A DNA stretch of 64,000 nucleotides from Alphaproteobacteria bacterium (GCA_009929265.1 SAAU01000002.1:14668-78667), one strand, 5' to 3'; shown: positions 18,646-57,699, counted from the stretch's first letter. The notes: generated by a model from the sequence alone, not told the origin. A program made the numbers and translations.

Positions 18646-18672
18646 TTTCTATTCCTTTGGAATCAAAGAGTT

Positions 18673-21099: not shown

Positions 21100-21188
21100 T
21101 TAAGATAAGCTCCCTACTAAAATTACAACAAGTATAGCAACGTTTCGACATAAATAAAAGCAAAAAGGCCGCATTAAGCCTTAAAAAA

Positions 21189-23369: not shown

Positions 23370-23420
23370 TTTTTATCCTCTTTTTAAGGAAAGTATAGCG
23401 AACTTCATAAAAAAAGGAAA

Positions 23421-23453
23421 TAAAAAAAGCATTCTTTAAAGAATGCTTTTTTC
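23421..23453 (-). terminator. Rho-independent terminator (palindrome agcattcttt/aaagaatgct flanked by A/T runs)
   Basis: It lies immediately downstream of lipoprotein gene copy 1. The same element recurs at 24323-24360 after copy 2. Confidence 0.6.
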
Positions 23454-23468
23454 TTAATCCTTAAAAAC

Positions 23469-38000: not shown

Positions 38001-41000
38001 AAAACACCATCTTGTGCATTTTTATAAACACTATAGGCTTTTCCATTTGGCATTACATAAGAAGTCACATTTCCAAGTGCATTCAAAACATAATGAGAAG
38101 AAATCAACTTTCCAATCAAAGTTCCATTATTATCTACAACTTGATTTTGACCAATCACACGACCAACAAACATTCCTTTGTCATTCTTAATTGTTCCTTC
38201 TTCAGACATAAAGCCAATCACATCTCCATAAGAGCCAATCACTTTTGTATCATAAGGGACATAACTTCCCACAACAGATCCTGTTTTTGAAATCAATCGA
38301 TTGTCAAAGGTAATGGACAAATCTTTATCTACACCATTTGAAAGAATTTTGCCTTCAAAAGAAATGCGACCGATTAAATGTCCCTTTTCATCCAAAGCAA
38401 CCCCAGGAATCAACAATCGTCCAATCCATAATCCTTCAGGAGAAATAATTTTTGTTCCAAAAAGCGTTCCGAGTACATTTCCAAGACGACCATAAACTTT
38501 CCCGTCAACAGAAACTCTTCCCAAGAAACGACCGTTCATATCTAGAGCAGATCCTTGTTGAATCAAAGAGGCAATATGCTCCCCTTTATCTCCAACAGCA
38601 TTTCCATAAGGAAGGGCTTGAGCTAAATGCTTGCCTTCTAAATCCTTAACTTCCCCATTGAAATCTAAAGAGCCTTTAAGTTTACTATCTGTTCCAACAA
38701 AAGCGCCCAATCGAACCAAAGATCCAACATATTCTCCTAAAGGAGAAATCACATCAAACCCAAAAGTCAAAGAGCCAAACTCTTTTCCTTCTTTTCCAAG
38801 AATTTTTCCCTCAACGTTTACATACCCTAAAACGTTTCCTTCATTCCCGATTGCAAGAGAGAAAGCAGGGAAAACCCGTCCGATAACGATCCCTTTGTCA
38901 TCAACAACAGTTCTATCTAATAAAACCGTTCCAATATTTGTCTTATCAGAGGACAAAACAGATCCGTCTTGAGAAATAAGACCAATTTGTTCATTATTCC
39001 AGCCTAGAACAGCCCCTGTTGGCATAACGCCCCCAATGACATTCCCTTCTAAATTAATAACAGTTTCGTCAGCTCGAACAGATCCAATTTCTTTTCCTGT
39101 AAAATCTCTAACTTTCCCCTCGTCTTGAAGAGCTCCAATAATTTTACCCTCTAAATCAATAATTCTTGCGCCATCTTGAATTAAAGAACCCAAAATCTTC
39201 TTATCGCCTAAAGAGATAACCGTTAAATCCGGAAGAACTGTAGCAAAAGGATTTCCTTCTAAATCAAACCCTTTTCCCTTTTCGGCATTAAAACGACCTA
39301 AGTATTTTCCATCCATAGAGATAATAGCCCCACTAGGAGGAATGAAGCCAGTCACTTCATTGTTTAAATTGACAACTTGACCGTTTTGAAGGACAAGTCC
39401 GACTTTTCTATTTTTTTCATCAATGACATCAGATCCGGAAACTTCCCAAGGTTGAATAGCTCCAAAAGCATCCAAAATCAAGCCTTTCCAAGTAGAAGAG
39501 AGCAACATTTTTCCATTTGTATCAACCATGCTTTTATCAGGATTGACACATCCGATAACATTTCCTCCTCTATCAACAACTTTTCCGTCAACACGAACCG
39601 TTCCGATGATTTTTCCAGAAGCATCTAATGCATTTCCAGAAGGAGACGCCGCCCCAATAATCTGTCCTTTTTCGTCAATCACATTCTTTGTTTGATCAAC
39701 ACATCCAACCTTTTGTCCTACCGTGCTATAAACAGAACCATCTAACGCGATAAGGCCTAATAAATGACATCCTTCAGAAATGGCCACACCCCGTGGAACA
39801 ACAGCTCCGATGATTTTGGCATTCACATCTTTGACATAGCCAGAATCTGTCACATTTCCAATATAAGAAGAATTTTCGTTTAACACTTGACCATTTGGAA
39901 TCACATATCCGATTTGTTTACATCCAAATCCCACAACGATCCCATGAGGAATAACAGATCCCAAAACACGTTCTGGCATACCCACATGACCATTCGTCAT
40001 CAAGCACCCTAAAACATTTCCGTCTTTATCTACGGCTTTCCCTTCAGAATTGACAAAGCCCATAATCTTATTTTGAGCATCGATTAAAGCGCCTTCTCTG
40101 ATAACCTTTCCAACAGGAATCCCATTCATATTAAAGACATTTCCGTCAATAGAGGCAACCCCCGTCTGTTTTCCAGAGGCGTCTAAGACTTTTCCATCCG
40201 CAGAAACACGGCCATAGGATTGGCAAGCGCTTCCAACAGCAACACCCTTTGGAACAATTCCTCCAATGATATTTTTATTATCATCTAAAACAAACCCTTC
40301 TGGGGAAATCATCCCCATTTTTTGGTAAGAAGAATTAACCACAGATCCGTCTGTTAAGGTAATTCCCATCACTTTTGATGTGAGATTAAGAGCAACCCCC
40401 CAAGGCATAACAGAACCAATAATTTTACCTTGTAAATCTGAAACTAATGCATTGGAAAGAACCGTTCCAACAACTGTTCCACTTTTATCTTGAACCGTGC
40501 CATCTTCCTTAACTCGACCTAAAACTTCCCCTTGCATATTCAAAACAGGAAGAAGAGGAACGACACCCCCTAAAATTTCCAGCTTAGAATTTACAATTGT
40601 TCCATCTGGGAGTGTTTTTCCAATTTTCTTATCTTCAAAATCAACCACTTCTCCAGTTGTTAAAACTTTTCCTATCACTTTGTTTTGTAAGGAAAGAGGA
40701 ATTTTTTGAGGTTGAGCAATTCCAATAATATCCCCTTCTTTATTCATGACCATTTCGCGGTCAGAATTCGTCCCAACAACATTTCCGTTTTTATCAATCG
40801 TTCCAACCAAACGACCGCTTTTATCGTAGACTCTATCCCCCACGACTTGGAATCCTGTCGGACGCCCCTTGTCATCCACAATTTCTCTTCTAGAAAGAAT
40901 CTTAAACCCTTTAATCTCGTTGCCTTCTAAATCAAATAGCTTTCCATTTTCATCAGCGTGCCCGACTAAAGTTCCGTCCTCGTCATAAACATCCTTTCCA

Positions 41001-42361
41001 ACAACACGTAAAGAGGTTGGATTTCCATTTTGATCTAAAATAACTTTTCCCAAAACAGCTTTCATACCGGTTGGTTTTCCGTCTAATCCCAAAACGTTTC
41101 CGTTTTCATCAACCGTTCCGACCAAATTTCCATCTTTGTCATAGACTTCTTTTCCAATAACGCGAAGAGAAGTTGGACGTCCATTTTTATCCAAAACAAC
41201 GCGACCTGGGACCGCCTTCAAATCCAAGATTTTTCCGTCTTTATCAATAGAGCCGACAAAATTGCCTTTACTATCATAAACTTCTTTACCGACAACTTGA
41301 TAATCTGTCAATTTTCCGTCTTTGTCGACAATAAGAGTTCCGTCAACGGCTTTTAATCCTGTTGAAGAACCATCTAATCCTAAGACATTTCCGTCTTTAT
41401 CAATCGTCCCGATAAGATTGTTCTTTTCGTCATAAACGCGACCTTTAATCACTCGGAATCCTGTTGGTTTCCCATCTACTCCGATAACATCTCCGCTTTC
41501 AGAAATATTACCAATCAAGTTTCCTTTTTTATCGTAAACTTTGTCGCCAACAATCTTCCAGCCTTCCGAAACCTTTCCTTTAGAACCGATAAAAGACCCT
41601 TCTTCAGAGAAAAATCCAACAATCTCGCCATCTTTATCAACGACATTTCCATTTTCATCAACATAGCCGACGACTTTACCGTCTAAACCAACAACAACAC
41701 GACCTTTTGTGTAATCCTTTTTATCGCCACCGTTTTCACAAATAACGCAATTTTTCGAATCAATTGATTGGCCTATAATCGTAATTAAAGTCTTTTGTTC
41801 TGCCGTTTCCAAACGTTCATTAATACTTAAATCTTTCCATTTTAAGAGAAGATTGTTTTGAATACGCCGAATTGAAATTGGATTCCAGAGCACTTTAATT
41901 GTGCAGGAATCTTCAGCAGATAATCTTAAATTTTCAGGACATTTTGATTCAATTTCAAACCCCTCAGATTGGTTTTCAACAAAAAAGGCAGAAAGAAATT
42001 GAATATCGCCGCCCTTTGCCGTTAAAGTAATAATTGCCTCAGCGTGACTACCAATAACAACTTGATCCAATTCAACTTTTTTTGGAGCAACTTCTAAAGA
42101 AACCGGAACCTTTTTAACTTCCGATAAGACCTTTAAAGAAGTATCTTCAACTTTCTTAAACGGATCTTCCGTCGTTGTTAAATCAGGTTCAATAACGTCT
42201 ACTTCCTTTTCTGGTTCATGGAATAAATATCCCAAACCAATAAAAAAGAAAACAACAGCCAAAAATCCAATTAAAAATAAAATTCGATTAGATTTTTTTA
42301 AATATCTCTCTGAAGAGCTTAATAATTTATCATCTTTCATTGTGTTTTTACAACCGAACAA
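35078..42361 (-). CDS. virB10: T4SS VirB10/TrbI-family protein, giant form (2,427 aa) with a roughly 1,700-aa internal repeat array
   Basis: The layout is a short cytoplasmic N-terminus, one TM helix (ILFLIGFLAVVFFFIGLGYLF), a huge repeat region, and a canonical TrbI/VirB10 C-terminal domain. That domain reads ...AVIVRSIDSRYPNVPVTAVVERNIYTEDGRNIIIPSGSRVIGSMSG...ISWNRLIRPDGSAF and is followed by an acidic, Pro-rich tail. Confidence 0.8.
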   Translation of the reverse strand: MFGCKNTMKDDKLLSSSERYLKKSNRILFLIGFLAVVFFFIGLGYLFHEPEKEVDVIEPDLTTTEDPFKKVEDTSLKVLSEVKKVPVSLEVAPKKVELDQVVIGSHAEAIITLTAKGGDIQFLSAFFVENQSEGFEIESKCPENLRLSAEDSCTIKVLWNPISIRRIQNNLLLKWKDLSINERLETAEQKTLITIIGQSIDSKNCVICENGGDKKDYTKGRVVVGLDGKVVGYVDENGNVVDKDGEIVGFFSEEGSFIGSKGKVSEGWKIVGDKVYDKKGNLIGNISESGDVIGVDGKPTGFRVIKGRVYDEKNNLIGTIDKDGNVLGLDGSSTGLKAVDGTLIVDKDGKLTDYQVVGKEVYDSKGNFVGSIDKDGKILDLKAVPGRVVLDKNGRPTSLRVIGKEVYDKDGNLVGTVDENGNVLGLDGKPTGMKAVLGKVILDQNGNPTSLRVVGKDVYDEDGTLVGHADENGKLFDLEGNEIKGFKILSRREIVDDKGRPTGFQVVGDRVYDKSGRLVGTIDKNGNVVGTNSDREMVMNKEGDIIGIAQPQKIPLSLQNKVIGKVLTTGEVVDFEDKKIGKTLPDGTIVNSKLEILGGVVPLLPVLNMQGEVLGRVKEDGTVQDKSGTVVGTVLSNALVSDLQGKIIGSVMPWGVALNLTSKVMGITLTDGSVVNSSYQKMGMISPEGFVLDDNKNIIGGIVPKGVAVGSACQSYGRVSADGKVLDASGKQTGVASIDGNVFNMNGIPVGKVIREGALIDAQNKIMGFVNSEGKAVDKDGNVLGCLMTNGHVGMPERVLGSVIPHGIVVGFGCKQIGYVIPNGQVLNENSSYIGNVTDSGYVKDVNAKIIGAVVPRGVAISEGCHLLGLIALDGSVYSTVGQKVGCVDQTKNVIDEKGQIIGAASPSGNALDASGKIIGTVRVDGKVVDRGGNVIGCVNPDKSMVDTNGKMLLSSTWKGLILDAFGAIQPWEVSGSDVIDEKNRKVGLVLQNGQVVNLNNEVTGFIPPSGAIISMDGKYLGRFNAEKGKGFDLEGNPFATVLPDLTVISLGDKKILGSLIQDGARIIDLEGKIIGALQDEGKVRDFTGKEIGSVRADETVINLEGNVIGGVMPTGAVLGWNNEQIGLISQDGSVLSSDKTNIGTVLLDRTVVDDKGIVIGRVFPAFSLAIGNEGNVLGYVNVEGKILGKEGKEFGSLTFGFDVISPLGEYVGSLVRLGAFVGTDSKLKGSLDFNGEVKDLEGKHLAQALPYGNAVGDKGEHIASLIQQGSALDMNGRFLGRVSVDGKVYGRLGNVLGTLFGTKIISPEGLWIGRLLIPGVALDEKGHLIGRISFEGKILSNGVDKDLSITFDNRLISKTGSVVGSYVPYDTKVIGSYGDVIGFMSEEGTIKNDKGMFVGRVIGQNQVVDNNGTLIGKLISSHYVLNALGNVTSYVMPNGKAYSVYKNAQDGVLTFGGSVIGPDGFIRGKLAPEGLSLGLDLTPFGNVFESGEVIKESQSVARAFPNSVVFDASNVTTGMITKPNVVVDKTGKVVGRTSVSNSVVNFDGRRIGTLMPYGSVLTNENEYVGEVLKSGVVVDGVGRPLGVVASDGIILNKNQDINGRMVAGGVAVGQYSKDGYGTMPILGMNAPQGLWIDFAGQLTGRTLLDGQVVDMQNAPQGKVNDYGVVIKNDGTVNGTVVPLSVAVGENCSVLGTVQFDGTVKDASGALKGRVTTNGLVKGDHMFNLLGKVLPKGLVVDRCRIVGQPRPDGKIINGQGEVVGCLNPDKSAQTLQGEKIGGLIENGNMVISKQGDLLGRVLPNGNVVDMTGSFLGCASYDGKVMDQNGSEIGCVFEKGVVVDGQGNVQGLVKENGEVISSAGELLGYVQCSGKVVDENNKVVGSVVSGELLKDKSGKVIGSLNEKGEVSSLSGDLLMKIGKDGKLSNAAGDEIGNLQKDGSVLDTSGKNLGLAEDLLSKKESESAKGVRIFIDDDVFDVSGNGSILNNVGDIVGYIGEDGRPYATDGSSFVKKKKDNQEENQTRRVPPRPQKKQPKYSPQEVAQIQALMIARRQGMKQRLGSATIVPERRVLARAKIKKDKDWGLGKIVSTYPVDMSRMILKDKAIPAVIVRSIDSRYPNVPVTAVVERNIYTEDGRNIIIPSGSRVIGSMSGSPGTNRVAKMEISWNRLIRPDGSAFNFQATSGDAQGRGGVSAYLDEMFLAKYGKPILTSSVISALTYVTASDEIVTENSDSGTVAQSDRAQAAQDARANFINDMQQIFKDLIDDSSSTPPVVFVPSGTRLTIFSNEDLWLRSEDEDEEDLVKELGEADKKAKNAPQEYKEGQRQIPTTVQTKDGRYIQGSGTYKPLDPQDAKVRAEDNPVPISDTPAPKPANPTGKSLSLNEIYSGNQGVVSYPVSAGDKIAEPVLPSTGDIQKSQTMSPDLF
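36650..41750 (-). repeat. Coding tandem-repeat array inside virB10. The 12-13-aa units have the form (V/I)x(V/Y)(D)xxGxx(I/V/L)G, and parts are organised in roughly 50-aa higher-order units
   Basis: Examples include VYDKKGNLIGNI, VYDEKNNLIGTI, VLGLDGKPTGMKAV and VYDKDGNLVGTVDENGNVLGLDGKPTG. Higher-order DNA repeats occur, for example ttccgtctttatcaat(a/c)g.gccgacaa near 41230 and again near 41390. Confidence 0.75.
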
Positions 42362-43836
42362 GTTACACCACGTTTTGAAAGTCGATTACAAATCGAATCA
42401 GCTTTCTCCAATTTTTTCACAGGCCCAATTCTTAACCTAAAGAAGTCTTTTCCATTTCCATTGGCATTGGCATCAACAGAAAAGTAAGGTTCATATCCCC
42501 TTAAGACATCTTCATTTCTTCGAATAATTCTATCCCATAAAGTTTCTAATTTTGCAATTTGATCATCGGCACCTAATTCAATAGCAATCGTATCTGAAAC
42601 AGCTGAATCCATTTCGTAAGGATTAACGCCTTTTGCGCTTATGCCGCTCATCACATCAACAATTCCTGATGCAGCTTGAGGAGAATTTGCAACTCCCTTT
42701 GGAAGTGGACGAAGAGGAGACATTTCTTTTTGCATAGAAGACCCCAAAGTCATCCCTGCATTCATAGAAACACTGCCTGCATTTTGAGCACTTTGTGCTT
42801 CTTTTTGCTTTGAACCACTGTAATCAACATATTGTCCTGCGGAAGGATCTCTACGAAGTTTTAAGCAAATAAGGCGCTTTCCATTTCTTAAAACCATATC
42901 GCCAATACCTTCAACGACAATCAAACGTCCATGATCCCCTTTTGTTCGAAATCCAACAGGGACTTCAGAATCTTGCACAAGCATATTAACAATAGGCCGT
43001 TGCGTCATTGTTAGAACCTTTGGCCCCAAATCAATATAAGTAAAAATATCATCTCTCCACACACGTTCTGGAGCAATTTCAATATCTTCAGGATTTGGAA
43101 TATAAACATCTATGTCAAAACGAAAATTTTCTGGATTAACAGGGATGGATTCCATCATAGAATTTGAAGACGTTTTTGTCCCCGATTTAGATCCAAAAGA
43201 ATTTCCAAGGCCCGAAGAAGAAGCCCGCATAGACACCCCTTGTTTATTATCAGAAAGTTGTCCCCCTGCATTTGAAGGCGTATTCTTTGGCCCCACCAAA
43301 ACATCCACAACAGAGTGGGTAATTCTATCTGTGTTGTAGGTTTCACTTCTTAAATAGAAAACGTATCTATTTCCAGAGCGGCCAAAAATAATTAAGTTGC
43401 TATCAACCCCAATATAAGTTGGATCCGCGTAGAGCAAGAGTGAGTTAGGGGCGGCAATTTCCCCTCCAAAAGACTCGGGAGATCCAATATGGACTTTTTC
43501 AATCAATTCCCAAGGAGGCAGATTGATAAGGGTCATCATTCCTTCTCTTAACCGAACAGGAAGAACAACATCTGGCGTCCACATGTAGCGAGAGTATCCA
43601 GGCTTTGTTTGCCCTTCCCCTAAATGCTGCATCGGATCATTCCATGCTTTTTGTTGCATCCCTAAAGAGTGGATATAATTCAGGTTCATTGTATCAAATT
43701 CACCTGAGGTTTGCGCCACTGCATCGTTTAATTGGTTCACGTCTGTTTTGCTTGGCTGTTGGGCAGAAGCACTGACCGCAAACGCCCCAAAAGCAACAGT
43801 TGCTAAAATAAGTTTTTTTAAATAAATTTTTGCCAT
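42337..43836 (-). CDS. virB9: T4SS outer-membrane core protein VirB9 with C-terminal SPOR-like extension
   Basis: A signal peptide precedes the VirB9 N- and C-domains (...GRLIVVEGIGDMVLRNGKRLICLKL). About 170 extra C-terminal residues end in ...DFFRLRIGPVKKLEKADSICNRLSKRGVTCSVVKTQ. Confidence 0.75.
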   Translation of the reverse strand: MAKIYLKKLILATVAFGAFAVSASAQQPSKTDVNQLNDAVAQTSGEFDTMNLNYIHSLGMQQKAWNDPMQHLGEGQTKPGYSRYMWTPDVVLPVRLREGMMTLINLPPWELIEKVHIGSPESFGGEIAAPNSLLLYADPTYIGVDSNLIIFGRSGNRYVFYLRSETYNTDRITHSVVDVLVGPKNTPSNAGGQLSDNKQGVSMRASSSGLGNSFGSKSGTKTSSNSMMESIPVNPENFRFDIDVYIPNPEDIEIAPERVWRDDIFTYIDLGPKVLTMTQRPIVNMLVQDSEVPVGFRTKGDHGRLIVVEGIGDMVLRNGKRLICLKLRRDPSAGQYVDYSGSKQKEAQSAQNAGSVSMNAGMTLGSSMQKEMSPLRPLPKGVANSPQAASGIVDVMSGISAKGVNPYEMDSAVSDTIAIELGADDQIAKLETLWDRIIRRNEDVLRGYEPYFSVDANANGNGKDFFRLRIGPVKKLEKADSICNRLSKRGVTCSVVKTQ

Positions 43837-43915: not shown

Positions 43916-44680
43916 CTATCCTTTCGGCTGATTTTCTTTATTTGTTGTTCCTTTTTGCCGAATTGCATATTGAACAACCGTAAATCCCAAAGGATTTTTT
44001 AATCTATATGCGTATTGAACATCCTGATTAGCTCGATAAATAATCCTCAACATAATAAGCCATCTTGTGCGAACAGGCTCTTTAATCGTTGGGAGCATAT
44101 CCACTGTATCAAGCTCAATTTGCCAAACGTCCCCTTTGGCAGTATTTGAGGCCGTCTTAAGAACAGAAAGAATCTCTATATCCCTTGTAAAACCTTCTTT
44201 ACGAATTTTTTCAAACGCCCCAACCGTTGTTTTTACAAAATCATTAAAAACAACATCTGAAGACATCCATTTAACAGGGCCTTGTGTATTCCACCGATTA
44301 AGAACCTCGTTAATATCAAACGTAATTTTAAGACGAGCCAAAAGATATTGTCGAATATAAGACTCTGTAATTAAAGACATCGTCTCCTCTGACGCCCCAA
44401 GAGGACGCACCCGAACAATTTGCTCTGACTTATCTTGAAAAGTCAAATAAAACGGCTGAACCCTTGTCACTGGAAGGATATAAAACAACCCCAGCAACAG
44501 AACAATATTAGCGCATAAACTCATCGCCACAACAATCGCAAAAGAGCGTGCTGTCCAAAGATAGCGACGTTCTCTTAAACTTTCTTCTGAAATTTCTTTT
44601 TCTATATCAAAGGAGGCTTCGTCAATTTTAGGCAAAGACTGTTTTGAAGAAAAAGAAGACTTACGTGTTGTGGGTTTCAT
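43916..44680 (-). CDS. virB8: T4SS VirB8 (copy b)
   Basis: It is bitopic, with an N-terminal TM helix and an NTF2-like periplasmic domain. The C-terminal signature reads NPLGFTVVQYAIRQ. Confidence 0.75.
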   Translation of the reverse strand: MKPTTRKSSFSSKQSLPKIDEASFDIEKEISEESLRERRYLWTARSFAIVVAMSLCANIVLLLGLFYILPVTRVQPFYLTFQDKSEQIVRVRPLGASEETMSLITESYIRQYLLARLKITFDINEVLNRWNTQGPVKWMSSDVVFNDFVKTTVGAFEKIRKEGFTRDIEILSVLKTASNTAKGDVWQIELDTVDMLPTIKEPVRTRWLIMLRIIYRANQDVQYAYRLKNPLGFTVVQYAIRQKGTTNKENQPKG

Positions 44681-44697: not shown

Positions 44698-44883
44698 TTA
44701 GGAAATAAACCAATTAGGTAAAGTTCTTGGTAAATCTAATTTCAAGCAAGCACAAGGAGATTTTTTAAGTTCGGAATGATCAATCCCAATTCCAACAGGC
44801 TCTTTATCGTAAAGAGATCCACAAGAGGCAAGAGCCGAACACAAAAGGATCGCCCCCATACATTTAATAACTGTTTTATTCAT
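44698..44883 (-). CDS. virB7: T4SS lipoprotein VirB7-like (61 aa)
   Basis: It has a signal peptide with a lipobox (LASC) and two further cysteines. It sits between the two virB8 paralogs, as in the rvh system. Confidence 0.55.
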   Translation of the reverse strand: MNKTVIKCMGAILLCSALASCGSLYDKEPVGIGIDHSELKKSPCACLKLDLPRTLPNWFIS

Positions 44884-44953: not shown

Positions 44954-45625
44954 TTATTCCCTTTTCTTTATGGAAAATCTATAATCCATTACCGTCATGC
45001 CGACAGGATTGATAATATTCTTTCCGTAGTAAATTCTTTCCTTTAAATCCTGAATATATAAAGCAGCAATATAGCGAACAACCAAAGGCGGTGTTCCGTC
45101 GGAGGAAAACGTCCTTGCATCAAACTCGACCTGCCAATTATTCCCCACATGAGACGTTTTAATAATGTTAATATCTACAACGGGAGCAGCCTCGTTCACA
45201 TAGTTTGAAATATTGGTCATATATGTCTTGTAAAAAGAAGCATACACTTTATCTCCTGCCAACGTATAAATATCCCCGCCATAATTCCAACGGCGCGTTA
45301 ATTCGATTTCGTCAGGGAAAGTTGAATGGTATCGCTCAACAAAAAACCGTATAAGGGTTTCATGGATTTTATCAATAGATTGAATCTGATTGTCAATAGG
45401 CTCAATTTGAACGGTCTCTTTTGACGTCATTTCTTGCGTCACAGGAAGAGCAACCACCCGAAGATAAGGAAGAAGCTGTAAAAAGAAGATAGTAAAAATA
45501 AAATTCAAAAAAAGCAGGAAAAAGGCCAAAATCATAACAAGCGAAGAAATCCACTCTGCTCGATAAATTCTTTTTTTCATCAGCTGAGAGCGAAGGTAAA
45601 TTGTCTCTTCTTTATTTTCTTGCAT
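44954..45625 (-). CDS. virB8: T4SS VirB8 (copy a, divergent paralog)
   Basis: It has an N-terminal TM helix. The NTF2-like domain ends INPVGMTVMDYRF. Confidence 0.7.
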   Translation of the reverse strand: MQENKEETIYLRSQLMKKRIYRAEWISSLVMILAFFLLFLNFIFTIFFLQLLPYLRVVALPVTQEMTSKETVQIEPIDNQIQSIDKIHETLIRFFVERYHSTFPDEIELTRRWNYGGDIYTLAGDKVYASFYKTYMTNISNYVNEAAPVVDINIIKTSHVGNNWQVEFDARTFSSDGTPPLVVRYIAALYIQDLKERIYYGKNIINPVGMTVMDYRFSIKKRE

Positions 45626-45759: not shown

Positions 45760-45792
45760 GCAAAAAAAAGGCTTCTTAAAAAAGAAGCCTCC
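45760..45792 (-). terminator. Rho-independent terminator after the upstream secreted-protein gene set
   Basis: The hairpin aggcttctt/aaaaa/agaagcct is followed on the minus strand by a run of eight T. Confidence 0.6.
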
Positions 45793-45809
45793 TTTTCATC
45801 TGTTTATCT

Positions 45810-47660
45810 CTATTCTCCACAAAGTGCTTTTAAATCCCCATCAAAAACACCCGTATCAGGCCAGTATTTTGCACGATAAAATCCTTTATTGGCATCAATT
45901 CCCCCTTTGATACAGTCTTTTTCAAGAATATTTAACTTATCCTTTAAGATGTCTTCAGATTTATCATCAACATAAGTTAAAAGTTCTTTTGAAGCTATTG
46001 CTTGCTTAAGTTCTTTTTTATATTCATTTTTCGGTTGAAGAGATAAAGACAAAACCCCGTCTTCGTCCCCAATAAGTTCATAAACAACTTTATTTAAGTT
46101 AATCCCTTTTGAAAGAACACTGTCATCAAGCTGATCTAAAATCCCTCTTGCCTCAGAAATCAATTCTTTTTTTCTGGCCTTAATTTGCGTCACTAAAGAT
46201 TCTAATTGGGCTTTATCTAAAAAGCTTATCTTTGAAGAAATTGTCAAGCCAACTTTTGCAGCGCGTTCAACAAAATTATCTCGCTCTGCTTCAAAAATAG
46301 CTTTCTTTTCCTCTTTTGCATTATAAGAAAGGCACGCTTGGAATTTCAAATCCAAATAACTTGAAATCCGATTAACCGCTTCAATCCCATTCTTATCTGA
46401 AGAAGAAACCTTATCCCCTAAATCTCTAAAAAATTCACTTCCATTTGTGGAATCTTGACGATAAGAGGCGTCTTCATTTGAAGCTAATCTTTCTTTCAAA
46501 ACTTCCCAAGGCATTGGCAATTCAGAATGAACAACCGTATCGGTTCCCCAATCTTCTTTTTGAATATAAGCCTTTTTATAGGCATCTTTATCTTGAATTT
46601 GAAGATAGAAAATTTCCTTATACGGTGGAAGAGGGAGATAATATGCCCCGCTTGCCCCTTCTTCTGCTTGAAGAGATTTTCCTAAAAGAGATTCTTTAAA
46701 CACAGAACTCGTCGTGGCCAATTTTGGACGCTTTGGCGGGTTAATCAATTCTCCTTCATACGGAAGAGGCACCCCCGTTATCCCTGTTAAGGCGGTCAAA
46801 TAACTCGTATAGGCCGATTTAATCTTAGAGGGATGAAGGTAATCTTTATCTCTATCTGAGAAAAGAGAATTTTCAAGCTCTTGCATTTTTGCCTTTAAAG
46901 AAGAGATCTTATCGGCAAGCCATCCTGCTTTTAAGGTCGCATTTAAGTAATATTCACGCACTTTTTCCATATGCGGATTCCAAACAAGCTTGTCATAAAG
47001 ATACTTTTCATCTTCCCAAAGCGGAAATTCCGGAATGCCTCTTTTTGTGCCATATTTTTTTGGATTTGCATATAAATCAACTAAAATATCCCGACCAATT
47101 TCCCACTTTAAGAAGTCGTCATTTCCTTCTTGTCCATTCAAATCTTTAAGAGAGTATTCTTTCTGATTTGAAACGGTCTTGCTGGCTTTTTTTCCTAAAT
47201 TTACCCCTTGTTTATAGCTTTCTTTTGTCATAGAAGCATTTAGATTTGAAATACTTTGTTCTTCCCCTTGAGAAATTTCATATCCCAAAGAAGAATCTAA
47301 TTCATCTGCTTTTTGAGTCAAACGCCCCCAAACAACATCTGGGTTTTCAAAAGAAGCATTTAATCGATTTACATTGCATTGAAAATGATCTGAATAGCGC
47401 CGATAATCCACAGCAGAAACTTCAACAGCATCTTTATATCTTTGCTCTATCCGTTTTAAATCTGAAAGCTCTTTTAAGAAATTATGGGCCGTTAACGCAT
47501 CTGATAAAACATCAATAGCCTGCGCTCTTTTCAAAGAACTTGTATCCACTTGCTTTGTTTCCGAAACAACAGGTTGCATCTTAACAATAGCGGAAAATCC
47601 CTCCTCTAGAGGAAAGAAAAATAATCCCGCAAGCAAGGCCATATAAGATACATATTTCAT
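45810..47660 (-). CDS. Secreted hypothetical protein, 616 aa (signal peptide, largely alpha-helical/charged)
   Basis: The signal peptide reads MKYVSYMALLAGLFFFPLEEGFSA. It is the first gene downstream in a five-gene co-directional cluster. Confidence 0.45.
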   Translation of the reverse strand: MKYVSYMALLAGLFFFPLEEGFSAIVKMQPVVSETKQVDTSSLKRAQAIDVLSDALTAHNFLKELSDLKRIEQRYKDAVEVSAVDYRRYSDHFQCNVNRLNASFENPDVVWGRLTQKADELDSSLGYEISQGEEQSISNLNASMTKESYKQGVNLGKKASKTVSNQKEYSLKDLNGQEGNDDFLKWEIGRDILVDLYANPKKYGTKRGIPEFPLWEDEKYLYDKLVWNPHMEKVREYYLNATLKAGWLADKISSLKAKMQELENSLFSDRDKDYLHPSKIKSAYTSYLTALTGITGVPLPYEGELINPPKRPKLATTSSVFKESLLGKSLQAEEGASGAYYLPLPPYKEIFYLQIQDKDAYKKAYIQKEDWGTDTVVHSELPMPWEVLKERLASNEDASYRQDSTNGSEFFRDLGDKVSSSDKNGIEAVNRISSYLDLKFQACLSYNAKEEKKAIFEAERDNFVERAAKVGLTISSKISFLDKAQLESLVTQIKARKKELISEARGILDQLDDSVLSKGINLNKVVYELIGDEDGVLSLSLQPKNEYKKELKQAIASKELLTYVDDKSEDILKDKLNILEKDCIKGGIDANKGFYRAKYWPDTGVFDGDLKALCGE

Positions 47661-47662
47661 TT

Positions 47663-48772
47663 TTATTCTCCCTCTGTCGTCGATAAAATAGGTTGAGGCA
47701 ACGTTTCTAATGTTTTGATATTTTGAATAGCTAACATTTGAAGACGAAGCGAAGCAATCTCTTGAACCACTAAAAGCATTTCATTGTAAAGCTCTTTGGC
47801 TTCATAGTTTATCCGAAAAGCTTTATCCTTATCTGTATCTTTAGCAGCTTTTTTGCGTAATTTGTCCATAGATTTTGTTAATCTCTCTAATCTGCTTTTT
47901 AAGAAAAGCATTTTAGCACCCATATCAATCATATTGTCTTGGACAAATTTTGTTTTCACATCCGCAACTTGACGAGCTGCAACAGAATCTTTAGGTTGAG
48001 CCACCAAAACATTTTCTTCAACGGCTTTAGAAACTTTCGCGGCATCTGATTTTTCCTCATCAGAGACAACTTTTGATGTTGAGGCAGAAGGATCTTCAAC
48101 CGCCTTATCAGGAGAGTCGACTGAAAAATCTTCCAAATTTCCTTCCCCATGGGCTTCTTTAATTTTTTCTGTCTTTTTCTTAGCCATCGTTTCTTTTAGG
48201 GATTTTGTGTTATCCCCTATGGTTTCTACCGTCTCTAAAACGTTATTCACCGCATCGTATGTTGAAACAGTCATATATAAATATTTAATTAACTTTGCAA
48301 ACCACCCATCAACCGTATCAAAAGCAAGATATAAAGAATCTAAAAAGCTTTTTTTATCTTCTTGCTCACTAGAAGAAATAGAAAGACGTTGTGTTGCAAA
48401 CCCTCTTGAGGAGACATCAGAATCTGAAAAAACATTATAACTTTTCACTTCTGAAGAAGGATCTAAAGAAGCAGAATCAAGATAGCGATCAATATCGCTT
48501 TTAAGCTCTGCGTCAGAGGTGTATTTTTCTTTTAAAGACCCATCTGAAGAAGTTGTCCTTGCCACAGGTTGTGTTGTGGTCGGCGTTGTTGTGCTTGTTT
48601 TTGAGGCACTTTCTGTTGATGTGTCTGTTTTATCTTGCGCCTCAAGAGTTGTTTTAGAAACCCCAACTCCAGAAATAAAATCTTCAAAATCTTGATTAGA
48701 AACCCCTTGAGCAAACGAAACAAGAGTATAGGAAAAAAACAATGTCGTTAAAAGTATTTTTTTGCCTTTCAT
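47663..48772 (-). CDS. Secreted Thr-rich/coiled-coil protein, 369 aa
   Basis: A signal peptide precedes a TSTTTPTTTQP linker. The C-terminal heptad-like region LRLQMLAIQNIKTL resembles the C-terminus of the 255-aa VirB5-like protein. Confidence 0.45.
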   Translation of the reverse strand: MKGKKILLTTLFFSYTLVSFAQGVSNQDFEDFISGVGVSKTTLEAQDKTDTSTESASKTSTTTPTTTQPVARTTSSDGSLKEKYTSDAELKSDIDRYLDSASLDPSSEVKSYNVFSDSDVSSRGFATQRLSISSSEQEDKKSFLDSLYLAFDTVDGWFAKLIKYLYMTVSTYDAVNNVLETVETIGDNTKSLKETMAKKKTEKIKEAHGEGNLEDFSVDSPDKAVEDPSASTSKVVSDEEKSDAAKVSKAVEENVLVAQPKDSVAARQVADVKTKFVQDNMIDMGAKMLFLKSRLERLTKSMDKLRKKAAKDTDKDKAFRINYEAKELYNEMLLVVQEIASLRLQMLAIQNIKTLETLPQPILSTTEGE

Positions 48773-48774
48773 TT

Positions 48775-49479
48775 TTATTCTCCTTCTTTTGTCGTTTCTT
48801 GAGGTTCAATGTAATAAACTTCCTGATATTTTAATTCTTTGGCAAAATCTAACTCTAATAAAGCTAAGCGAAGTTGTATTTGTGGAATTGTTTCACTCAT
48901 CAATAAGAAGATAGCCGCTGTATTATTAGAAACATCATCTCTTAAATCTGTCGCAGAGGAAATGTTTTGGATAAGGGCTTCTTCTTTTTCCTTAAAACTA
49001 CTATCCATCTCTGCTTCGTAACTATCTATATACGCTTTTGTCCTTGACAAAACTTCTAACTGATAGGTCCCTCGGTGGGCTAAAACGGCTTTATATTTTT
49101 TACTTGAGGAACGAGCCTTTATTTGAAGAGGGTAGTAAAACGTTTCTTTTATATACTTTTGCGCATTTTTAACCGATTTGAAGGGTTTTCCATAAAGCTT
49201 CTCTGTATTTTTTGTCGTTGGGACATATTTCATTCCCGTATCTTTTTCAATTGCCTCATCAATACGTTCTTGTGTTTTTCCAAATTGACCAATTGACTTT
49301 AATTTTTGGTCTAAATCCGAATTTTTTGAAATTTTCCCATAATTTTCAGAAAGCTGATTGAGAAGATCTTCTGAATTTTGAACAAGATTTAAAGGATCTA
49401 TGTTCAAAAAAGCTTGAGCATTTTTGACACAAAGAAGGGAAAAAATCATTCCAAAGAAAAGTGCATATCTTTTTTTCAT
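48775..49479 (-). CDS. Secreted alpha-helical protein, possible VirB5/TrbJ-like, 234 aa
   Basis: A signal peptide is followed by the start of the mature protein, FLNIDPLNLVQNSEDLLNQL. Confidence 0.4.
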   Translation of the reverse strand: MKKRYALFFGMIFSLLCVKNAQAFLNIDPLNLVQNSEDLLNQLSENYGKISKNSDLDQKLKSIGQFGKTQERIDEAIEKDTGMKYVPTTKNTEKLYGKPFKSVKNAQKYIKETFYYPLQIKARSSSKKYKAVLAHRGTYQLEVLSRTKAYIDSYEAEMDSSFKEKEEALIQNISSATDLRDDVSNNTAAIFLLMSETIPQIQLRLALLELDFAKELKYQEVYYIEPQETTKEGE

Positions 49480-49490
49480 TACTTTCTCCT

Positions 49491-50159
49491 TTAAAGCTCA
49501 ATTTCTTTTGTCACAGAATCTTCTTTTTTTGGACTAAGAGCTCCCATAGCGCGAACCCCCTTTAAATCAGTCCACATCAAATCCAAATAATTAATCAATA
49601 TCCATCGTTCTGTAATCTGGGCGCCAAGTTCGTTGATATAGGTTTGAACTTGTCTTGTATCTTTTGATTTCTTGACTTGTTTTGTTCTTTTCTTCGATTC
49701 TTCTTCTGATTTTTCTAAAGAAGATAAAGACGCCATCGAAATACTATATGCGTTGGTTGAAACAGCGGCTAAAAGTTCTTTTTGCTTTTTTTGATTTTCT
49801 AAAACTTTTTGAGTGTTTTCTGTTTGTGGGCGCAAAGTTTCTTCAGCAACCTTTTGAATGTCCTCAGTTTTACCTGTTTCAACAGCTTTAGAAATCTCTT
49901 CACTCGAAACAGTAGGGATTTCTTTTGAAGTTGGAATATTCACTTCATTTGTAAAAGATTCTTTAGGACCCACTTGCCCTTCTTTTTCAAGAATTTCTTC
50001 ATCAAGAGCAGTGCCAGCCTTTTGTTGGATTTTCTCAACTTCCGAAAAAGATCCTTGAAGCTTTGTTAAAAACTCTGATATCACACTAAAGGCATATCCT
50101 TTTACAGGGAAAAGGAGAAGTCCCGCAACGATACATAACGCGCTTACAAATTTTTTCAT
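49491..50159 (-). CDS. Secreted alpha-helical protein, 222 aa
   Basis: It has a signal peptide and coiled-coil-prone segments. Confidence 0.4.
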   Translation of the reverse strand: MKKFVSALCIVAGLLLFPVKGYAFSVISEFLTKLQGSFSEVEKIQQKAGTALDEEILEKEGQVGPKESFTNEVNIPTSKEIPTVSSEEISKAVETGKTEDIQKVAEETLRPQTENTQKVLENQKKQKELLAAVSTNAYSISMASLSSLEKSEEESKKRTKQVKKSKDTRQVQTYINELGAQITERWILINYLDLMWTDLKGVRAMGALSPKKEDSVTKEIEL

Positions 50160-50169
50160 TTTGTCCTCC

Positions 50170-50937
50170 TCAACCGCTTACGATACCTCTCATACTTTGA
50201 ATCAGCATCAATTCCAAAATTTTAAGCTGGATATAGTTGTTTTCTGATTGAATTTTTGCTTGATGAAGCATGATTTTCGAATTTGTTTGGATGTCTGTCA
50301 TCAAATCAACAGAATTTGAGATTTCATCCGAAAGATCGGCAACTTCTTCTGTTGTTTTTGCATTTTTTTGTTGAAGTTCTTTTGTTTCGGCATAAGTTTT
50401 AGAAACGGTTTCAACTTCCTCTTTTTCAATGGTTTCAACGCGTTCTTCACGTTCTTTTTTAGATTCGGAATCGCCCCCCGTTAAAGAGTCTTCAACCTTT
50501 TTTGCCTGTTCATTTAAAGAGGCGTTCACTTTATCTGTTGCCTCAGAAATCTTATCGTTCACGGCATCTGTAGCTTCAGAAACTTTATCATTTACAGCAT
50601 CTTTCAACGCTTCCCCAGAGGCAATCTTTTTACCATCTTTATAACTTTGTTTCAAAGAATCTGTATCTATTCCCAGATCGCCCCCTAAGCTTAAAGAATC
50701 GGTAATCGCTTTATCCCAATCGCCCGAATCGATTCTATCCCCGATCGCGACAAGTTGTTTTACATGTGTTTCATACTGAGAAACTTGAGCTCTTAAATCT
50801 TCCAAATCTTGGGTAGATTTTTTCAACTGTGCGGAAAAGGTAGGAACATCTGCCGTTGGAATTTGGGCTTTTGCCGAAAAGGCAACCCCAAACACAACCA
50901 TGAAGAAAACCCATCCCATTTTGAAGTATTTTTTCAT
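50170..50937 (-). CDS. VirB5/TrbJ-like secreted protein, 255 aa
   Basis: A signal peptide is followed by AQIPTADVPTFSAQL......SQYETHVKQL. This resembles the TrbJ/VirB5 N-terminal IPV.D...Q..QY.xQL pattern, recalled from memory. Coiled-coil segments are present. Confidence 0.45.
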   Translation of the reverse strand: MKKYFKMGWVFFMVVFGVAFSAKAQIPTADVPTFSAQLKKSTQDLEDLRAQVSQYETHVKQLVAIGDRIDSGDWDKAITDSLSLGGDLGIDTDSLKQSYKDGKKIASGEALKDAVNDKVSEATDAVNDKISEATDKVNASLNEQAKKVEDSLTGGDSESKKEREERVETIEKEEVETVSKTYAETKELQQKNAKTTEEVADLSDEISNSVDLMTDIQTNSKIMLHQAKIQSENNYIQLKILELMLIQSMRGIVSG

Positions 50938-54456: not shown

Positions 54457-57400
54457 TTAAAACCCTCCTAACATCTTTAAATTAACTCTCAATAGAAAGC
54501 TTAAATCCCCTTTGTAGTCTCTATCCTTCGTATATGAACGTTCAAAATCAAGAGCAAACACGGCACATTCATCTTCATAAGCCAACGTCCCGCCCATTTC
54601 AATAGGTCCTTTTTCTTCTTTTAATCCGTATTTATAATAAGAACTTAATGTCCAATTTCTCAAAAGTTTTGAGTTCAAAAAGAAAGTTATTTCCTCTCTA
54701 TCTGGAAAGTTTGAGAATTGTGTATCACTTTTATTTAAGAACATATAATCCACCCCAAATCTTAAAGGATCCTTCCCAACAGAAAAGGTGACCTCAGAGG
54801 TTCTTGGATTAAAAGTTTTATAATCTAGACGAAATCTATATTGAAGAAACATATTTTGATACGTCACATTAACTCGCCCAACATAATCGGAAAAGTTTTG
54901 CCTTAGCCCCGATTCTTCTGGGAAAATATCCTTGTCTAAAAACTGATAAGATTGTCCTAAAAAGGCTGACACATTAGCCTTTCCATACAAGGCCCATTTC
55001 ATTCCATAGGCCACATGTGTCCCATATTCTATTCTGTCTCTTCCTGTAAAACGGCTGGTTGAAAACAAGTTAGCATCATCAAATTCAACATCCAAACTGT
55101 CATTATTGGGAATATTTGTTTTATCTGAAGAAGACGGGGCTGTCACAAGTTTAATAACGGGCTCAATCACCTGAGATGATGTTTCTCCGCCCTGAATTAA
55201 AGGATATTTAAATTCTAAAGAAGCTGTTGGAACAAAACGAGAAACACGCCCGTCATAAGTTGAATCGGACACAAAATATTCATCCATTCGCATTTGAGTT
55301 TGGAAATTAAAAACCCCTCCAAAATCAGAAACATAAGGAAGTGTAAAAGTTTGAACCACAGAAATATTCTTTGAATTTTCATCATTATCGCGTTCAATAT
55401 AGGCCGAATACACTTCTGTTGAAAAATATCCTCCCTTAAAAAGAACAGGCCCTTGATAGGCAAAATAGACCGGTAAAACATACGGCATTTCGTCGTCAGA
55501 AACATCTGCCCTTAAATTTTGGAAAGCAAGACCTGTTAAAGAAAAATAGGATTTTGGAGAAAATCTCTCAAACCGAACTTCATTTTGAAGCCAAGAAGCG
55601 CTTTCGTTTGTTCCATCAATTTTATAACGGCGAAAATATGTGTCATCGTTTGTCACGTTGACTTCTGATTTAAACCGCCAATTTTGATTTAAATCATAAC
55701 CGAACTCTCCTTTTAAATGTCCCAATCTTTTATTGGCATCATCTTGTGTGAAACTGCTTTCTAAATCGATTTTTCCTTTTCTGAAAACGCCTCTATATTT
55801 TGAAAAGATGAGCGGCTTATGGGTAGAGGAAAAATATGGCGTAATTTCCAAATCTTGATGATCCGATAGGACCCAGTAAAAGGGAAGCCCGAGAGCCACT
55901 CCTAATTCTTGAGATTTTTTAATTTTAGGCGATAAAAATCCTGTTTTTCTTTTCACTCTAAAATCAGGATATTGGAGATAAGGCCAATAAATTAAGGGAT
56001 AGCCTTTGATTTCTAAAAAGGTATTTTTTTGTGTAAATTCTTGTTCTTTATCATTATGCTCAACCTCTTCTGAATGAAGGGCCCACAAAGGAGAGGCAGC
56101 CACACAAAAATCACACGGCGTAAAGACCCCGTCTTCTAAATAGATGATATTTCCTTCATCCTTACGTTCTGCTTTATTCGCCCAAGCTTGCGATCCATCT
56201 GGAAAGAGTATAGAGATTTTTTCCAAAAACCCTGTTTTAAAGTCAGATGTAAAATTACCTTCTTCTGCAAAAAGCTCTGTTCCATCCTTTTGTGTTAAAG
56301 AGACATTTCCAAGAGCTCTTACCTTTTGAGTCTGCTTATTATAAATAATCTTATCTGCTTTTAGATTTGAATCCTCTTGCGTGGCTTCCACATTTCCAGA
56401 GGCAATAACTTCTTTTGTTTCTTTATCATAGATAACTTCATTGGCTTCAAATTCAATGGGCTGATTTTTTTTGCGATTCAAAGAATCTTCCTTTGTAGAA
56501 GCATTTGAGCAAAGGGGAAGACTCATTAAAAACAAGAAAAGAAAAAATCTTTTTTGAATCTTTTTAAGAAACTCTTTCTTTTTCTCTTCTTTTAAAAAAG
56601 AATATTCATCGAGCATTTTTCCTTTTAAAAGAAGCATGAGAAGCACCCCAAAAGGAATCAAAATATTTGCCGCCATTAAAAGCAAAAACCATAAATTTTT
56701 GTTCGCAAGATTTTCAAAACCTAAAGCTGCTGATTGCAAGAATAAAACAGTAAAGGAAGCCAAAACGACTTGTTTTGTTTGAGAGCCTCTCTTAAACCGG
56801 CTTAATAACGTAAAAACTAAAGCGACTAAGACAAAAACCAACGTATAAAAAGGAGAAGAGAGCCTTTTAAAAGCCTCGACCTTATACATTCTGTATTCTT
56901 CCTTATCAATTCCCTTTTGTTTTTTCTTAACTTCTAAAAGAGCTCTAAGCGGCAATTCGTTATCTCGAAGAGTCCTTTTTTTAGAAGAAGAAAACAACTC
57001 CGAAAAGTCCATTACATACTTATCAAAATAAAGCGTTGAATATTTTTCAGAGGTTTTTTTAATTTCTTGACGAGAACCGTTTACCATTAAAAGCTCTGCC
57101 TTCCCGCCGTGTTGCATAAAGTTTCCTTTTTCGGCAAAAACAACGGTTTGAAGATCTGGCTTTGTCTGATCGTAAATCATAATCCCGTGCAAAGAGCCAT
57201 CTTTATCCCGCGAACGGACATAAATCGTATAGCCTTTTGAAACGTAATTAAATTGCCCTTCTTGAAGTAAGACATGCGTTAAATCACTTTTAACTTGGAA
57301 TTGAAGCTCTCGAAAAGTTGTCACGGATTCTGGAATAATTTTAAGGGTCAGAAAAAAACCAAATCCCGTCAGGAAAATTCCTAAGAAAAGAACTGGTTTT

Positions 57401-57699
57401 GATAAATTCCAAGGGGTTAATCCTGCCGATTTCATGATAGTGATTTCTCTATCGGCATTCATTTTATTTAAAACAAAAAGCGTCACCACAAAAAAAGCAA
57501 GGGGGGCGATAATGGCCAAAAAATTTGGAAGAGCTAAAAAAGTTAGTTTAAGAAAAACAAGAACAGGTAATCCTTTTGTGACAAAAAGGTCTATCATTTT
57601 GAAAGATTGCGCCAACCAAACCAAAGACATCATTCCCAAGGAAACAAGGCAAAATCCAAAAAATATCTGCTGCGTTATATATTTAGAGAGAAGCTTCAT
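54457..57699 (-). CDS. lptD: Single ORF combining an LptF/LptG-family permease (about residues 1-375) with LptD/OstA (about residues 385-1080)
   Basis: The N-terminus MKLLSKYITQQIFFGFCLVSL starts a six-TM YjgP/YjgQ fold. An internal signal-peptide-like KKIQKRFFLFLFLMSLPLCSNA follows. Then come an OstA N-domain (IEFEANEVIYDKETKEVIASGNV...) and a large beta-barrel that ends in an aromatic residue (..LGGF). Confidence 0.6.
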   Translation of the reverse strand: MKLLSKYITQQIFFGFCLVSLGMMSLVWLAQSFKMIDLFVTKGLPVLVFLKLTFLALPNFLAIIAPLAFFVVTLFVLNKMNADREITIMKSAGLTPWNLSKPVLFLGIFLTGFGFFLTLKIIPESVTTFRELQFQVKSDLTHVLLQEGQFNYVSKGYTIYVRSRDKDGSLHGIMIYDQTKPDLQTVVFAEKGNFMQHGGKAELLMVNGSRQEIKKTSEKYSTLYFDKYVMDFSELFSSSKKRTLRDNELPLRALLEVKKKQKGIDKEEYRMYKVEAFKRLSSPFYTLVFVLVALVFTLLSRFKRGSQTKQVVLASFTVLFLQSAALGFENLANKNLWFLLLMAANILIPFGVLLMLLLKGKMLDEYSFLKEEKKKEFLKKIQKRFFLFLFLMSLPLCSNASTKEDSLNRKKNQPIEFEANEVIYDKETKEVIASGNVEATQEDSNLKADKIIYNKQTQKVRALGNVSLTQKDGTELFAEEGNFTSDFKTGFLEKISILFPDGSQAWANKAERKDEGNIIYLEDGVFTPCDFCVAASPLWALHSEEVEHNDKEQEFTQKNTFLEIKGYPLIYWPYLQYPDFRVKRKTGFLSPKIKKSQELGVALGLPFYWVLSDHQDLEITPYFSSTHKPLIFSKYRGVFRKGKIDLESSFTQDDANKRLGHLKGEFGYDLNQNWRFKSEVNVTNDDTYFRRYKIDGTNESASWLQNEVRFERFSPKSYFSLTGLAFQNLRADVSDDEMPYVLPVYFAYQGPVLFKGGYFSTEVYSAYIERDNDENSKNISVVQTFTLPYVSDFGGVFNFQTQMRMDEYFVSDSTYDGRVSRFVPTASLEFKYPLIQGGETSSQVIEPVIKLVTAPSSSDKTNIPNNDSLDVEFDDANLFSTSRFTGRDRIEYGTHVAYGMKWALYGKANVSAFLGQSYQFLDKDIFPEESGLRQNFSDYVGRVNVTYQNMFLQYRFRLDYKTFNPRTSEVTFSVGKDPLRFGVDYMFLNKSDTQFSNFPDREEITFFLNSKLLRNWTLSSYYKYGLKEEKGPIEMGGTLAYEDECAVFALDFERSYTKDRDYKGDLSFLLRVNLKMLGGF

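Follow-up and report, generated by a model that had tools for sequence, protein, structure and literature searches.

What are the five adjacent genes that precede virB8 in an uncultured alphaproteobacterium, and what part, if any, do they play in the type IV secretion system (T4SS) encoded after them? The genes lie in a 64,000-nucleotide stretch of DNA (Alphaproteobacteria bacterium, GCA_009929265.1, SAAU01000002.1:14668-78667; the whole stretch is referred to here as the window), and public annotation describes all five products as 'hypothetical protein'. In the order of transcription, we name them by the length of their products p255, p222, p234, p369, and p616. An earlier note, made from the sequence alone, had seen in them a run of secreted coiled-coil proteins with VirB5/TrbJ-like candidates. 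The reading we favor, and regard as reasonably probable, is that they form an exported accessory module of a P-type (VirB-like) T4SS of an uncultured, gut-associated alphaproteobacterium, standing in the virB5 slot; p255 would be a diverged VirB5/TrbJ equivalent, p222 and p234 its remote paralogs, and p369 and p616 two proteins acting together. All five would be exported via Sec and their signal peptides cleaved; the VirB5-like proteins would then join a periplasmic stalk or a pilus-nucleating tip, possibly as a mixed oligomer, and p369 with p616 would contribute a further part, distal or periplasmic, that is specific to the lineage.

The tight, same-strand arrangement described in the earlier note is borne out, with products of 222-616 aa and spacers that measure, in order, 10, 11, 2, and 2 nt (near the 3-12 bp first given). 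Every gene begins with ATG, and a ribosome-binding site of the GGAG type lies ahead of it. The signal peptides that had been proposed are also seen: all five N-termini have the layout of Sec signals, with a basic n-region, then a hydrophobic core, and small residues at the cleavage site, and cleavage is predicted, from p255 to p616, at AKA-Q, GYA-F, AQA-F, SFA-Q, and FSA-I (hyphens marking the cut). Transmembrane segments beyond the signal peptide were found neither in the five proteins nor across their orthologues, and lipid anchors are also absent. The mature parts are acidic, low in proline and glycine, and 30-33% charged, as claimed; of the other attributes ascribed to them, helicity is predicted for p255 only, in low-confidence models, and a coiled coil was not demonstrated. 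The p234/p369 (48772-48790) and p369/p616 (47660-47680) junctions carry the same sequence, GGAGAATAAAAATG, which comprises a ribosome-binding site, a stop codon, a 2-nt gap, and a start codon. This common sequence gives p234 and p369 their '-EGE' ends and indicates translational coupling; in p234, p369, and p616, the ribosome-binding site of the next gene overlaps the '-GE' end. Compared with the 98-100% identical strain L089, the ratio of nonsynonymous to synonymous substitution (dN/dS) is 0-0.20 for the five genes, within the range of neighboring housekeeping and virB genes; they are therefore real, functional, and under purifying selection.

Gene order among relatives ties the five genes to the secretion system. 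Relatives of VirB9 were searched with one genome per species, giving 243 matches, and loci were counted in the best 80, all of which come from gut or rumen metagenome-assembled genomes (MAGs); labels of the related loci include Alphaproteobacteria, Rhodospirillales, Azospirillum, and Ca. Scatocola. A p616 orthologue occurs in 67 of these 80 loci, with the families in unchanged order. In the close clade, this order is folD-F1-F2-F3-F4-F5-virB8a-virB7-virB8b-virB9-virB10, where F1 to F5 are the families of p255, p222, p234, p369, and p616, respectively; six-gene loci alone have an additional paralog, G1, between folD and the p255 family. In the distant clade, it is virB4-D1-D2-D3-D4-virB8a-virB7-virB8b-virB9, so that the flanking upstream gene differs (folD vs. 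virB4) and the module stays constant. Across 66 loci, the gap between p616 and virB8a has a median of 2 nt and does not exceed 30 nt in 60. In the window, it is 184 nt and contains an intrinsic terminator (45798-45761), the top-ranked terminator-like site within 43.8-52.5 kb; the terminator that the earlier note assigned to the cluster is thus real, but it is specific to this lineage, since the median gap in relatives leaves p616 abutting virB8a. No consensus sigma-70 promoter was found ahead of virB8a. A VirB9-independent sample, consisting of metagenome loci fetched via a p616 motif (n=11), had the same gene order throughout (11/11), and virB8a came next in all five loci whose contig reached far enough. 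The p616 gene always adjoins virB8a where the contig allows, and the five genes are a conserved T4SS module rather than generic periplasmic proteins; nor do the families sit far from T4SS loci in relatives, an outcome that the earlier note had named as damaging to its proposal.

In another reading, which is extremely improbable, the five are generic helical proteins of the periplasm (Skp/OmpH-like chaperones or envelope spacers) lying beside a T4SS and co-transcribed with folD and housekeeping genes; OmpH/Skp-like proteins had been raised in the earlier note itself. This reading could draw on the position of p255 only 27 nt after folD, with no promoter detected in that gap, on the terminator before virB8a, and on one weak OmpH match (PF03938, E=0.006) among 42 first-gene homologues. 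However, linkage to virB8 is near-universal whatever the upstream neighbor, and in distant relatives the module lies inside the virB4-virB8 interval. A widespread housekeeping family is likewise not what database searches returned: a word-indexed protein search with p255 recovered only its own cluster, and HMMER, run against 1.84 billion representatives, found one more, 26% identical, for a total of two. Searches with family alignments gave at least eight matches for alignment A4 and at least one for A3 among the matches listed, none of them Pfam-labeled.

Single-linkage clustering of the module proteins at E<1e-6 was dropped, as families merged through fusion proteins and position offsets. 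Four contigs with this alphaproteobacterial T4SS (L001, L020, L025, and L079) are filed under Holdemanella biformis or 'uncultured Lactobacillales', probably as a result of bin contamination.

The position of the module in the distant clade, where D1 directly follows virB4, is the canonical virB5 slot. Among six reference plasmids, VirB5/TrbJ comes directly after VirB4 in five; in pRmeGR4a, virB4 and the gene in the VirB5 slot are separated by a lytic-transglycosylase gene. The locus of the window is split, and p255 has folD upstream rather than virB4.

Profile matches point to the same family. The top Pfam match of p255 is PF07996 (VirB5/TrbJ; curated cut-off 24.7 bits), at 22.7 bits and E=1.4e-4, with residues 107-237 aligned to profile positions 55-179; an orthologue in L006 reaches 23.8 bits over positions 1-92, and D1 of L075 reaches 15.7 bits. 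An N-terminal match of p255 to the VirB5 model TIGR02791 scores 13.8 bits against a cut-off of 132, and there is a weak TrbJ N-terminal match as well. With signal peptides stripped, the consensus of the p222 family also has PF07996 as its top Pfam match (21.8 bits, profile positions 9-181 of 197). Two of 49 members of the p234 and p369 families match PF07996, the best at E=2.5e-6, which by scaling is probably above the cut-off; precomputed Pfam labels in four related contigs place PF07996 on no p234 or p369 family member. D1 of L056 scores 28.8 bits against the N-terminal model DUF4141 (cut-off 30), for which there are three other matches. No Pfam family other than PF07996 recurs across the module, its matches lying mostly just under threshold, and none of 25 p616 family members matches it despite their similar composition.

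The mature N-terminus of p255, QIPTAD, has the VirB5-type 'IPxxD' start. When the motif [IVLFYM][PAV][VTAIPSM]xD was tested at the mature N-terminus (about 0.02 occurrences expected per window tested), it was present in 15 of 32 members of the p255 family and its counterparts (F1, 3/7; G2, 6/18; D1, 6/7) and in five of eight true VirB5s. Three of seven close orthologues of p369 begin with FPILD; in the p234 and p222 families, the N-terminal motif is not conserved. The likeness of the 255-aa product to TrbJ/VirB5 that was originally noticed is thus plausible, and these data suggest that the p255, p222, and p234 families are probable remote relatives of VirB5 rather than confirmed members. Within p255, residues ~110-140 hold two copies of an 11-residue repeat, AVNDKvSEATD, which accounts for spurious matches to SHERP and apolipoprotein-type repeats.

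The relationships among the five proteins themselves emerge only from profiles, because BLASTP detects similarity in their signal peptides alone. Families were compared profile to profile with hhalign after removal of signal peptides, and reversed-profile controls were almost all at or below about 1%. Corresponding families align across loci with hhalign probabilities of 100% (F5-G6) and 99.2% (F5-D4) for p616, 98.3-98.8% (F4-G5) and 97.9% (F4-D4) for p369, 99.1% (F3-G4) for p234, 96.5% (F2-G3) and 90.6% (F2-D2) for p222, and 91.8% (F1-G2) for p255. Non-corresponding families also align: F1-F3 at a probability of 92.7%, F1 being aligned over its full length to the C-terminal portion of F3 (reversed control 0.2%), F3-G1 at 96.1%, G1-G2 at 95.2%, F3-G3 at 91.6%, and F1-F2 at 77.3%. 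HMMER gives a consistent picture. A signal-peptide-stripped F1+G2 profile matches p234 at E=6.8e-7, and the stripped p255-family profile matches D1 at 3.8e-11 and 3.9e-9; run against all open reading frames (ORFs) of the window, the p255-family profile has p234 as its sole cross-match (E=1e-7) and does not match p369 or p616, despite their similar composition. The p222-family profile matches an F1 member of L033 (3.1e-8), D1 of L056 (1e-5), and p234 (5.8e-4). For p369, the corresponding values are 67.6% for F3-F4 by hhalign and 5.5e-4 for an HMMER link to the paralog group.

To judge from these profiles, p255, p222, and p234 are paralogs of one another, remotely related, and G1 of the six-gene loci belongs with them; p369 is linked to the group only weakly, and p616 is unrelated to the other four. 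The tandem VirB5-like family of the earlier note therefore holds for three of its proposed members and does not extend to p616, with p369 in between. At about 15-25% identity, and with separate orthologue lineages running across a deep clade, the paralogs are ancient. Some p234 orthologues (in L008, L043, L024, L033, and L005) are 670-820 aa long and bear a 400-600-aa N-terminal extension before the p234-like domain.

Several results weigh against equating any of these proteins with VirB5. Every match to a VirB5 model for which the sequence is identified falls below the curated cut-off, and profile scores are inflated by helical, polar sequences; not one of 32 individual p222 family members matches PF07996 at E<=0.05. 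The best PDB match of family profile A4, in which signal peptides were kept, is TrwJ, the VirB5 of R388 (E=1.1e-4), but this match is carried by the signal peptide together with the IPVxD motif and helix 1, and it disappears once signal peptides are removed (alignment A6); PDB profile searches with alignments A2, A3, A7, and A8 returned nothing relevant. By hhalign, comparison with a profile of six plasmid VirB5/TrbJ sequences gave probabilities of 0.2-29.5%, although this home-made profile is low-powered, as a Microvirga protein with a clear VirB5 motif reaches only 11% with it (and has no PF07996 match). Structural similarity to VirB5 was likewise not demonstrated. AlphaFold2 (AF2) modeled mature p255 from a single sequence as all-helical, with three long helices and several short ones, at a predicted local distance difference test score (pLDDT) of 65.7, and did worse with a nine-sequence alignment (pLDDT 49.8). 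Both models are poor, and Foldseek, one of the comparisons suggested at the outset, matched them to generic helical bundles only, none at E<=1e-3. Finally, VirB2, VirB4, and VirB6 were not found within the window, nor were virB3 and virD4; nor does the virB4-virB8 interval of the distant clade (L055-L078) contain a polytopic VirB6-like protein. A tblastn search of plasmids with p255 and one D1 protein gave no match. A rank test in plasmid loci was set aside: VirB5 tended to come first for every family profile, that of p616 included, so the test is non-discriminating and reflects composition.

In distant relatives, D4 is a single protein of ~1,250 aa that joins a p369-like N-terminus to a p616-like remainder; a D4 profile containing no window sequence, run against all ORFs of the window, recovers both p369 (7.4e-13) and p616 (4.5e-11). 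Because they are one fused protein there, p369 and p616 would be expected to act together. An alignment of 25 p616 orthologues (A3) has two invariant cysteines, C95 and C583, and the conserved motifs DVYANPEK.G, FPLW.DQKYLY, PLPP, FP.WP.PW, NPNGEMA, and NNRL.VYQ; C-termini are not conserved. The center of p616 is conserved and rich in proline and tryptophan, and such motifs do not fit a plain coiled coil, contrary to what was initially proposed for all five products. Profile searches with the p616 family found no relative in Pfam or the PDB.

These properties of p616 bear on a different assignment, in which some or all of the five proteins, especially p369 and p616, would be additional subunits of a core complex that has expanded in the periplasm or outer membrane, much like the components that are species-specific in Cag or Dot/Icm, and not a tip or adhesin. 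The machine is indeed atypical and enlarged, with a 2,427-aa VirB10, a SPOR domain on VirB9, and a duplicated VirB8; the p616 family shows no sign of VirB5, and its conserved core, with the two invariant cysteines, looks globular; all five proteins are soluble and exported, without membrane or lipid anchoring; and the genes are co-operonic with virB8-virB11, as structural parts would be. However, core subunits usually evolve slowly, and here identity to the L008 and L033 orthologues is 16-28% for the five proteins, as compared with 46-49% for folD and 62-65% for VirB9. The VirB5-type motif and PF07996 signals also put at least three of the proteins in the stalk/tip class. We consider this assignment unlikely, though it overlaps with the accessory module that we favor, since VirB5 is itself a stalk component.

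The same divergence may be read in terms of function. The middles of the five proteins are rich in indels and of low complexity, and fast divergence together with variable middles fits exposed, contact-making parts, although relaxed constraint would look alike. It would also suit proteins that are carried rather than structural. Pertussis toxin, whose five signal-peptide-bearing subunit genes lie directly upstream of ptl, is assembled in the periplasm and released by its T4SS, and the present module might similarly encode Sec-dependent cargo: five consecutive signal-peptide genes directly precede T4SS genes, they diverge fast, and a terminator of their own follows them in the window. Yet no Pfam or NCBIfam scan found a toxin or enzyme domain in any of the five, the first gene occupies the virB5 slot after virB4 and has VirB5 features, and the composition and order of the module are fixed across a deep clade, unlike those of cargo. 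We therefore hold a cargo role to be highly unlikely, and retain the stalk/tip-class module as the preferred interpretation.

Among known systems, the closest family is single-copy VirB5/TrbJ (PF07996; including TraC of pKM101 and TrwJ of R388). The VirB5-like proteins of the module share with it predicted Sec export, a length of ~220-260 aa, an all-helical structure (as predicted at low confidence for p255), a mature 'IPxxD' start followed by a long helix, a gene placed after virB4 in distant relatives of the window, and recurrent near-threshold PF07996 matches. The fold of TraC is a three-helix bundle with a small globular appendage (PMC2653234, citing Yeo 2003). VirB5 is single-copy in the canonical systems examined, whereas three to five paralogs stand in tandem at this locus; they are very diverged, mostly score below cut-off, have variable, low-complexity middles, and lack an adjacent VirB6 gene.

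Bartonella and Helicobacter offer the nearest precedents for a system with more than one tip-class protein. The Trw T4SS of Bartonella has amplified trwJ (VirB5) and trwL (VirB2) and mediates host-specific erythrocyte adhesion (PMC2883598, PMC3406051). As in the present locus, several VirB5-type genes stand in tandem at one T4SS locus, with a diversification that suggests variable surface contact; however, the Trw copies are recent, recognizably similar, and co-amplified with trwI and trwH, whereas the paralogs described here are ancient and no pilin or VirB6 is co-amplified with them. In H. pylori, CagH, CagI, and CagL are contiguous, weakly similar, and form a pilus-biogenesis subassembly (PMC3164655, PMC3320882). 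The resemblance lies in a contiguous set of lineage-specific exported or surface T4SS proteins of weak mutual similarity, one of them regarded as the VirB5 counterpart, that accompanies a giant repeat-bearing VirB10, which in H. pylori is CagY. We found no sequence similarity between the two sets, and no counterpart here of the C-terminal hexapeptide common to CagH, CagI, and CagL. A tandem VirB5-like expansion with a new partner is thus probably unusual, but not unprecedented. No paper turned up in a full-text search of the literature for RF32 together with type IV secretion and Alphaproteobacteria.

The Rickettsiales framework in which the locus was first placed fits less well. By definition, the rvh system has VirB8, VirB9, and VirB4 in duplicate and VirB6 in multiple copies, and lacks a VirB5 analogue (PMC11077975); the gene for its candidate VirB7 immediately precedes virB8b (PMC2653234). 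The locus resembles rvh in being split and in the order virB8a-small lipoprotein-virB8b-virB9-virB10-virB11; it differs in having VirB5-like genes, in the single VirB9 seen in the 64-kb window, and in a host of the gut anaerobe type. The relatives are gut or rumen MAGs, the window encodes the anaerobic ribonucleoside-triphosphate reductase NrdD, which fits a gut anaerobe and not a typical Rickettsiales host, and only the B8-B7-B8 order is rvh-like. For these reasons, membership in rvh is not established.

A more elaborate proposal, which we put forward tentatively and think doubtful as a whole, would unite these comparisons. Four or five VirB5-like paralogs (p255, p222, p234, perhaps p369, and G1) might together form a stalk or tip that is a hetero-oligomer rather than the VirB5 homo-pentamer, capped or extended by p369-p616 as an adhesin-like element; together with the CagY-like giant VirB10, this would make a host- or neighbor-contacting T4SS of gut commensal Alphaproteobacteria, and, given the B8-B7-B8 layout shared with rvh, one that could show rvh before the loss of VirB5.

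The closest annotated plasmid system is that of Microvirga sp. VF16 plasmid pMVF16-3, whose VirB11 is 43.5% identical and whose VirB9 and VirB10 are the best plasmid matches. A 58-aa lipoprotein upstream of its virB8 resembles the 61-aa lipoprotein of the window and has the same KSPCAC motif, and its virB4 is followed by a 273-aa protein with AQVPVLD and then by an exported 428-aa protein. It is a conjugative system with a relaxase and VirD4, and differs further in having only one VirB8, a VirB10 of normal size, and a protein with three transmembrane segments in the interval. No significant link was found between the exported Microvirga proteins and the families of the window.

If the accessory-module reading is correct, widespread uncultured gut and rumen Alphaproteobacteria carry an unusual T4SS in which several ancient paralogs have arisen from the tip or stalk protein and a new, conserved partner has joined them, alongside a giant repeat-bearing VirB10. 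This would add to the known ways in which T4SSs diversify their contact surface, for which Bartonella Trw and Helicobacter CagH/I/L are precedents, and the family profiles could be used to search again for overlooked VirB5 analogues in rvh-type systems. Nothing known is overturned by the finding.

Coordinates of the five-gene module, the downstream virB genes, and other features of the window are given in Table 1.

Table 1. Features of the window, with positions counted from its first nucleotide.
Feature	Position	Strand	Description
p255	50170-50937	(-)	255 aa; Sec-exported (predicted), VirB5/TrbJ-like; family F1/G2, homologous to D1
p222	49491-50159	(-)	222 aa; Sec-exported (predicted), remote paralog; family F2/G3/D2
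p234	48775-49479	(-)	234 aa; Sec-exported (predicted), remote paralog of the p255 family; family F3/G4
p369	47663-48772	(-)	369 aa; Sec-exported (predicted); Thr/Ser-rich linker; corresponds to the N-terminal module of D4; possibly VirB5-like
p616	45810-47660	(-)	616 aa; Sec-exported (predicted); conserved family; corresponds to the C-terminal module of D4
Intrinsic terminator after p616	45761-45798	(-)	17-pair stem, 4-nt loop, T-run
VirB8a	44954-45625	(-)	PF04335, E=3.2e-10
VirB7-like lipoprotein	44698-44883	(-)	61 aa; lipobox LASC, KSPCAC motif; between both virB8 genes
VirB8b	43916-44680	(-)	PF04335, E=5.4e-13
VirB9	42337-43836	(-)	PF03524, 1e-13; C-terminal SPOR, PF05036, 2.6e-6
VirB10	35078-42361	(-)	2,427 aa; PF03743 TrbI at residues 2101-2294; PF21785 in 7 stretches
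VirB11 ATPase	34077-35066	(-)	PF00437, 1.8e-22
NrdD	708-2774	(-)	Anaerobic ribonucleoside-triphosphate reductase
Large ORFs	15893-24131	(-)	496, 421, 808, 726, and 220 aa
LptF/LptG-LptD ORF	54457-57699	(-)	1,080 aa; LptF/LptG permease domain, LptD_N, and LptD

VirB8a and VirB8b are 25% identical to one another. The 61-aa lipoprotein between them has no Pfam match and is called as a gene in relatives. The SPOR (peptidoglycan-binding) domain of VirB9 is recorded in relatives too. VirB10 is built of an N-terminal transmembrane segment, ~1,800 aa of 4-fold and 5-fold beta-flower repeats (PF21785 and PF21784), and a normal TrbI domain; its length is 2,200-2,490 aa in close relatives and about 1,200-1,360 aa in the distant clade.

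Elsewhere in the window, the large ORFs at 15893-24131 have no Pfam match at E<=1e-3 and are unrelated to the five families. The LptF/LptG-LptD gene joins an inner-membrane permease to an outer-membrane barrel, an odd topology, and is also present in L089, L101, and L103 at 1,080-1,083 aa.

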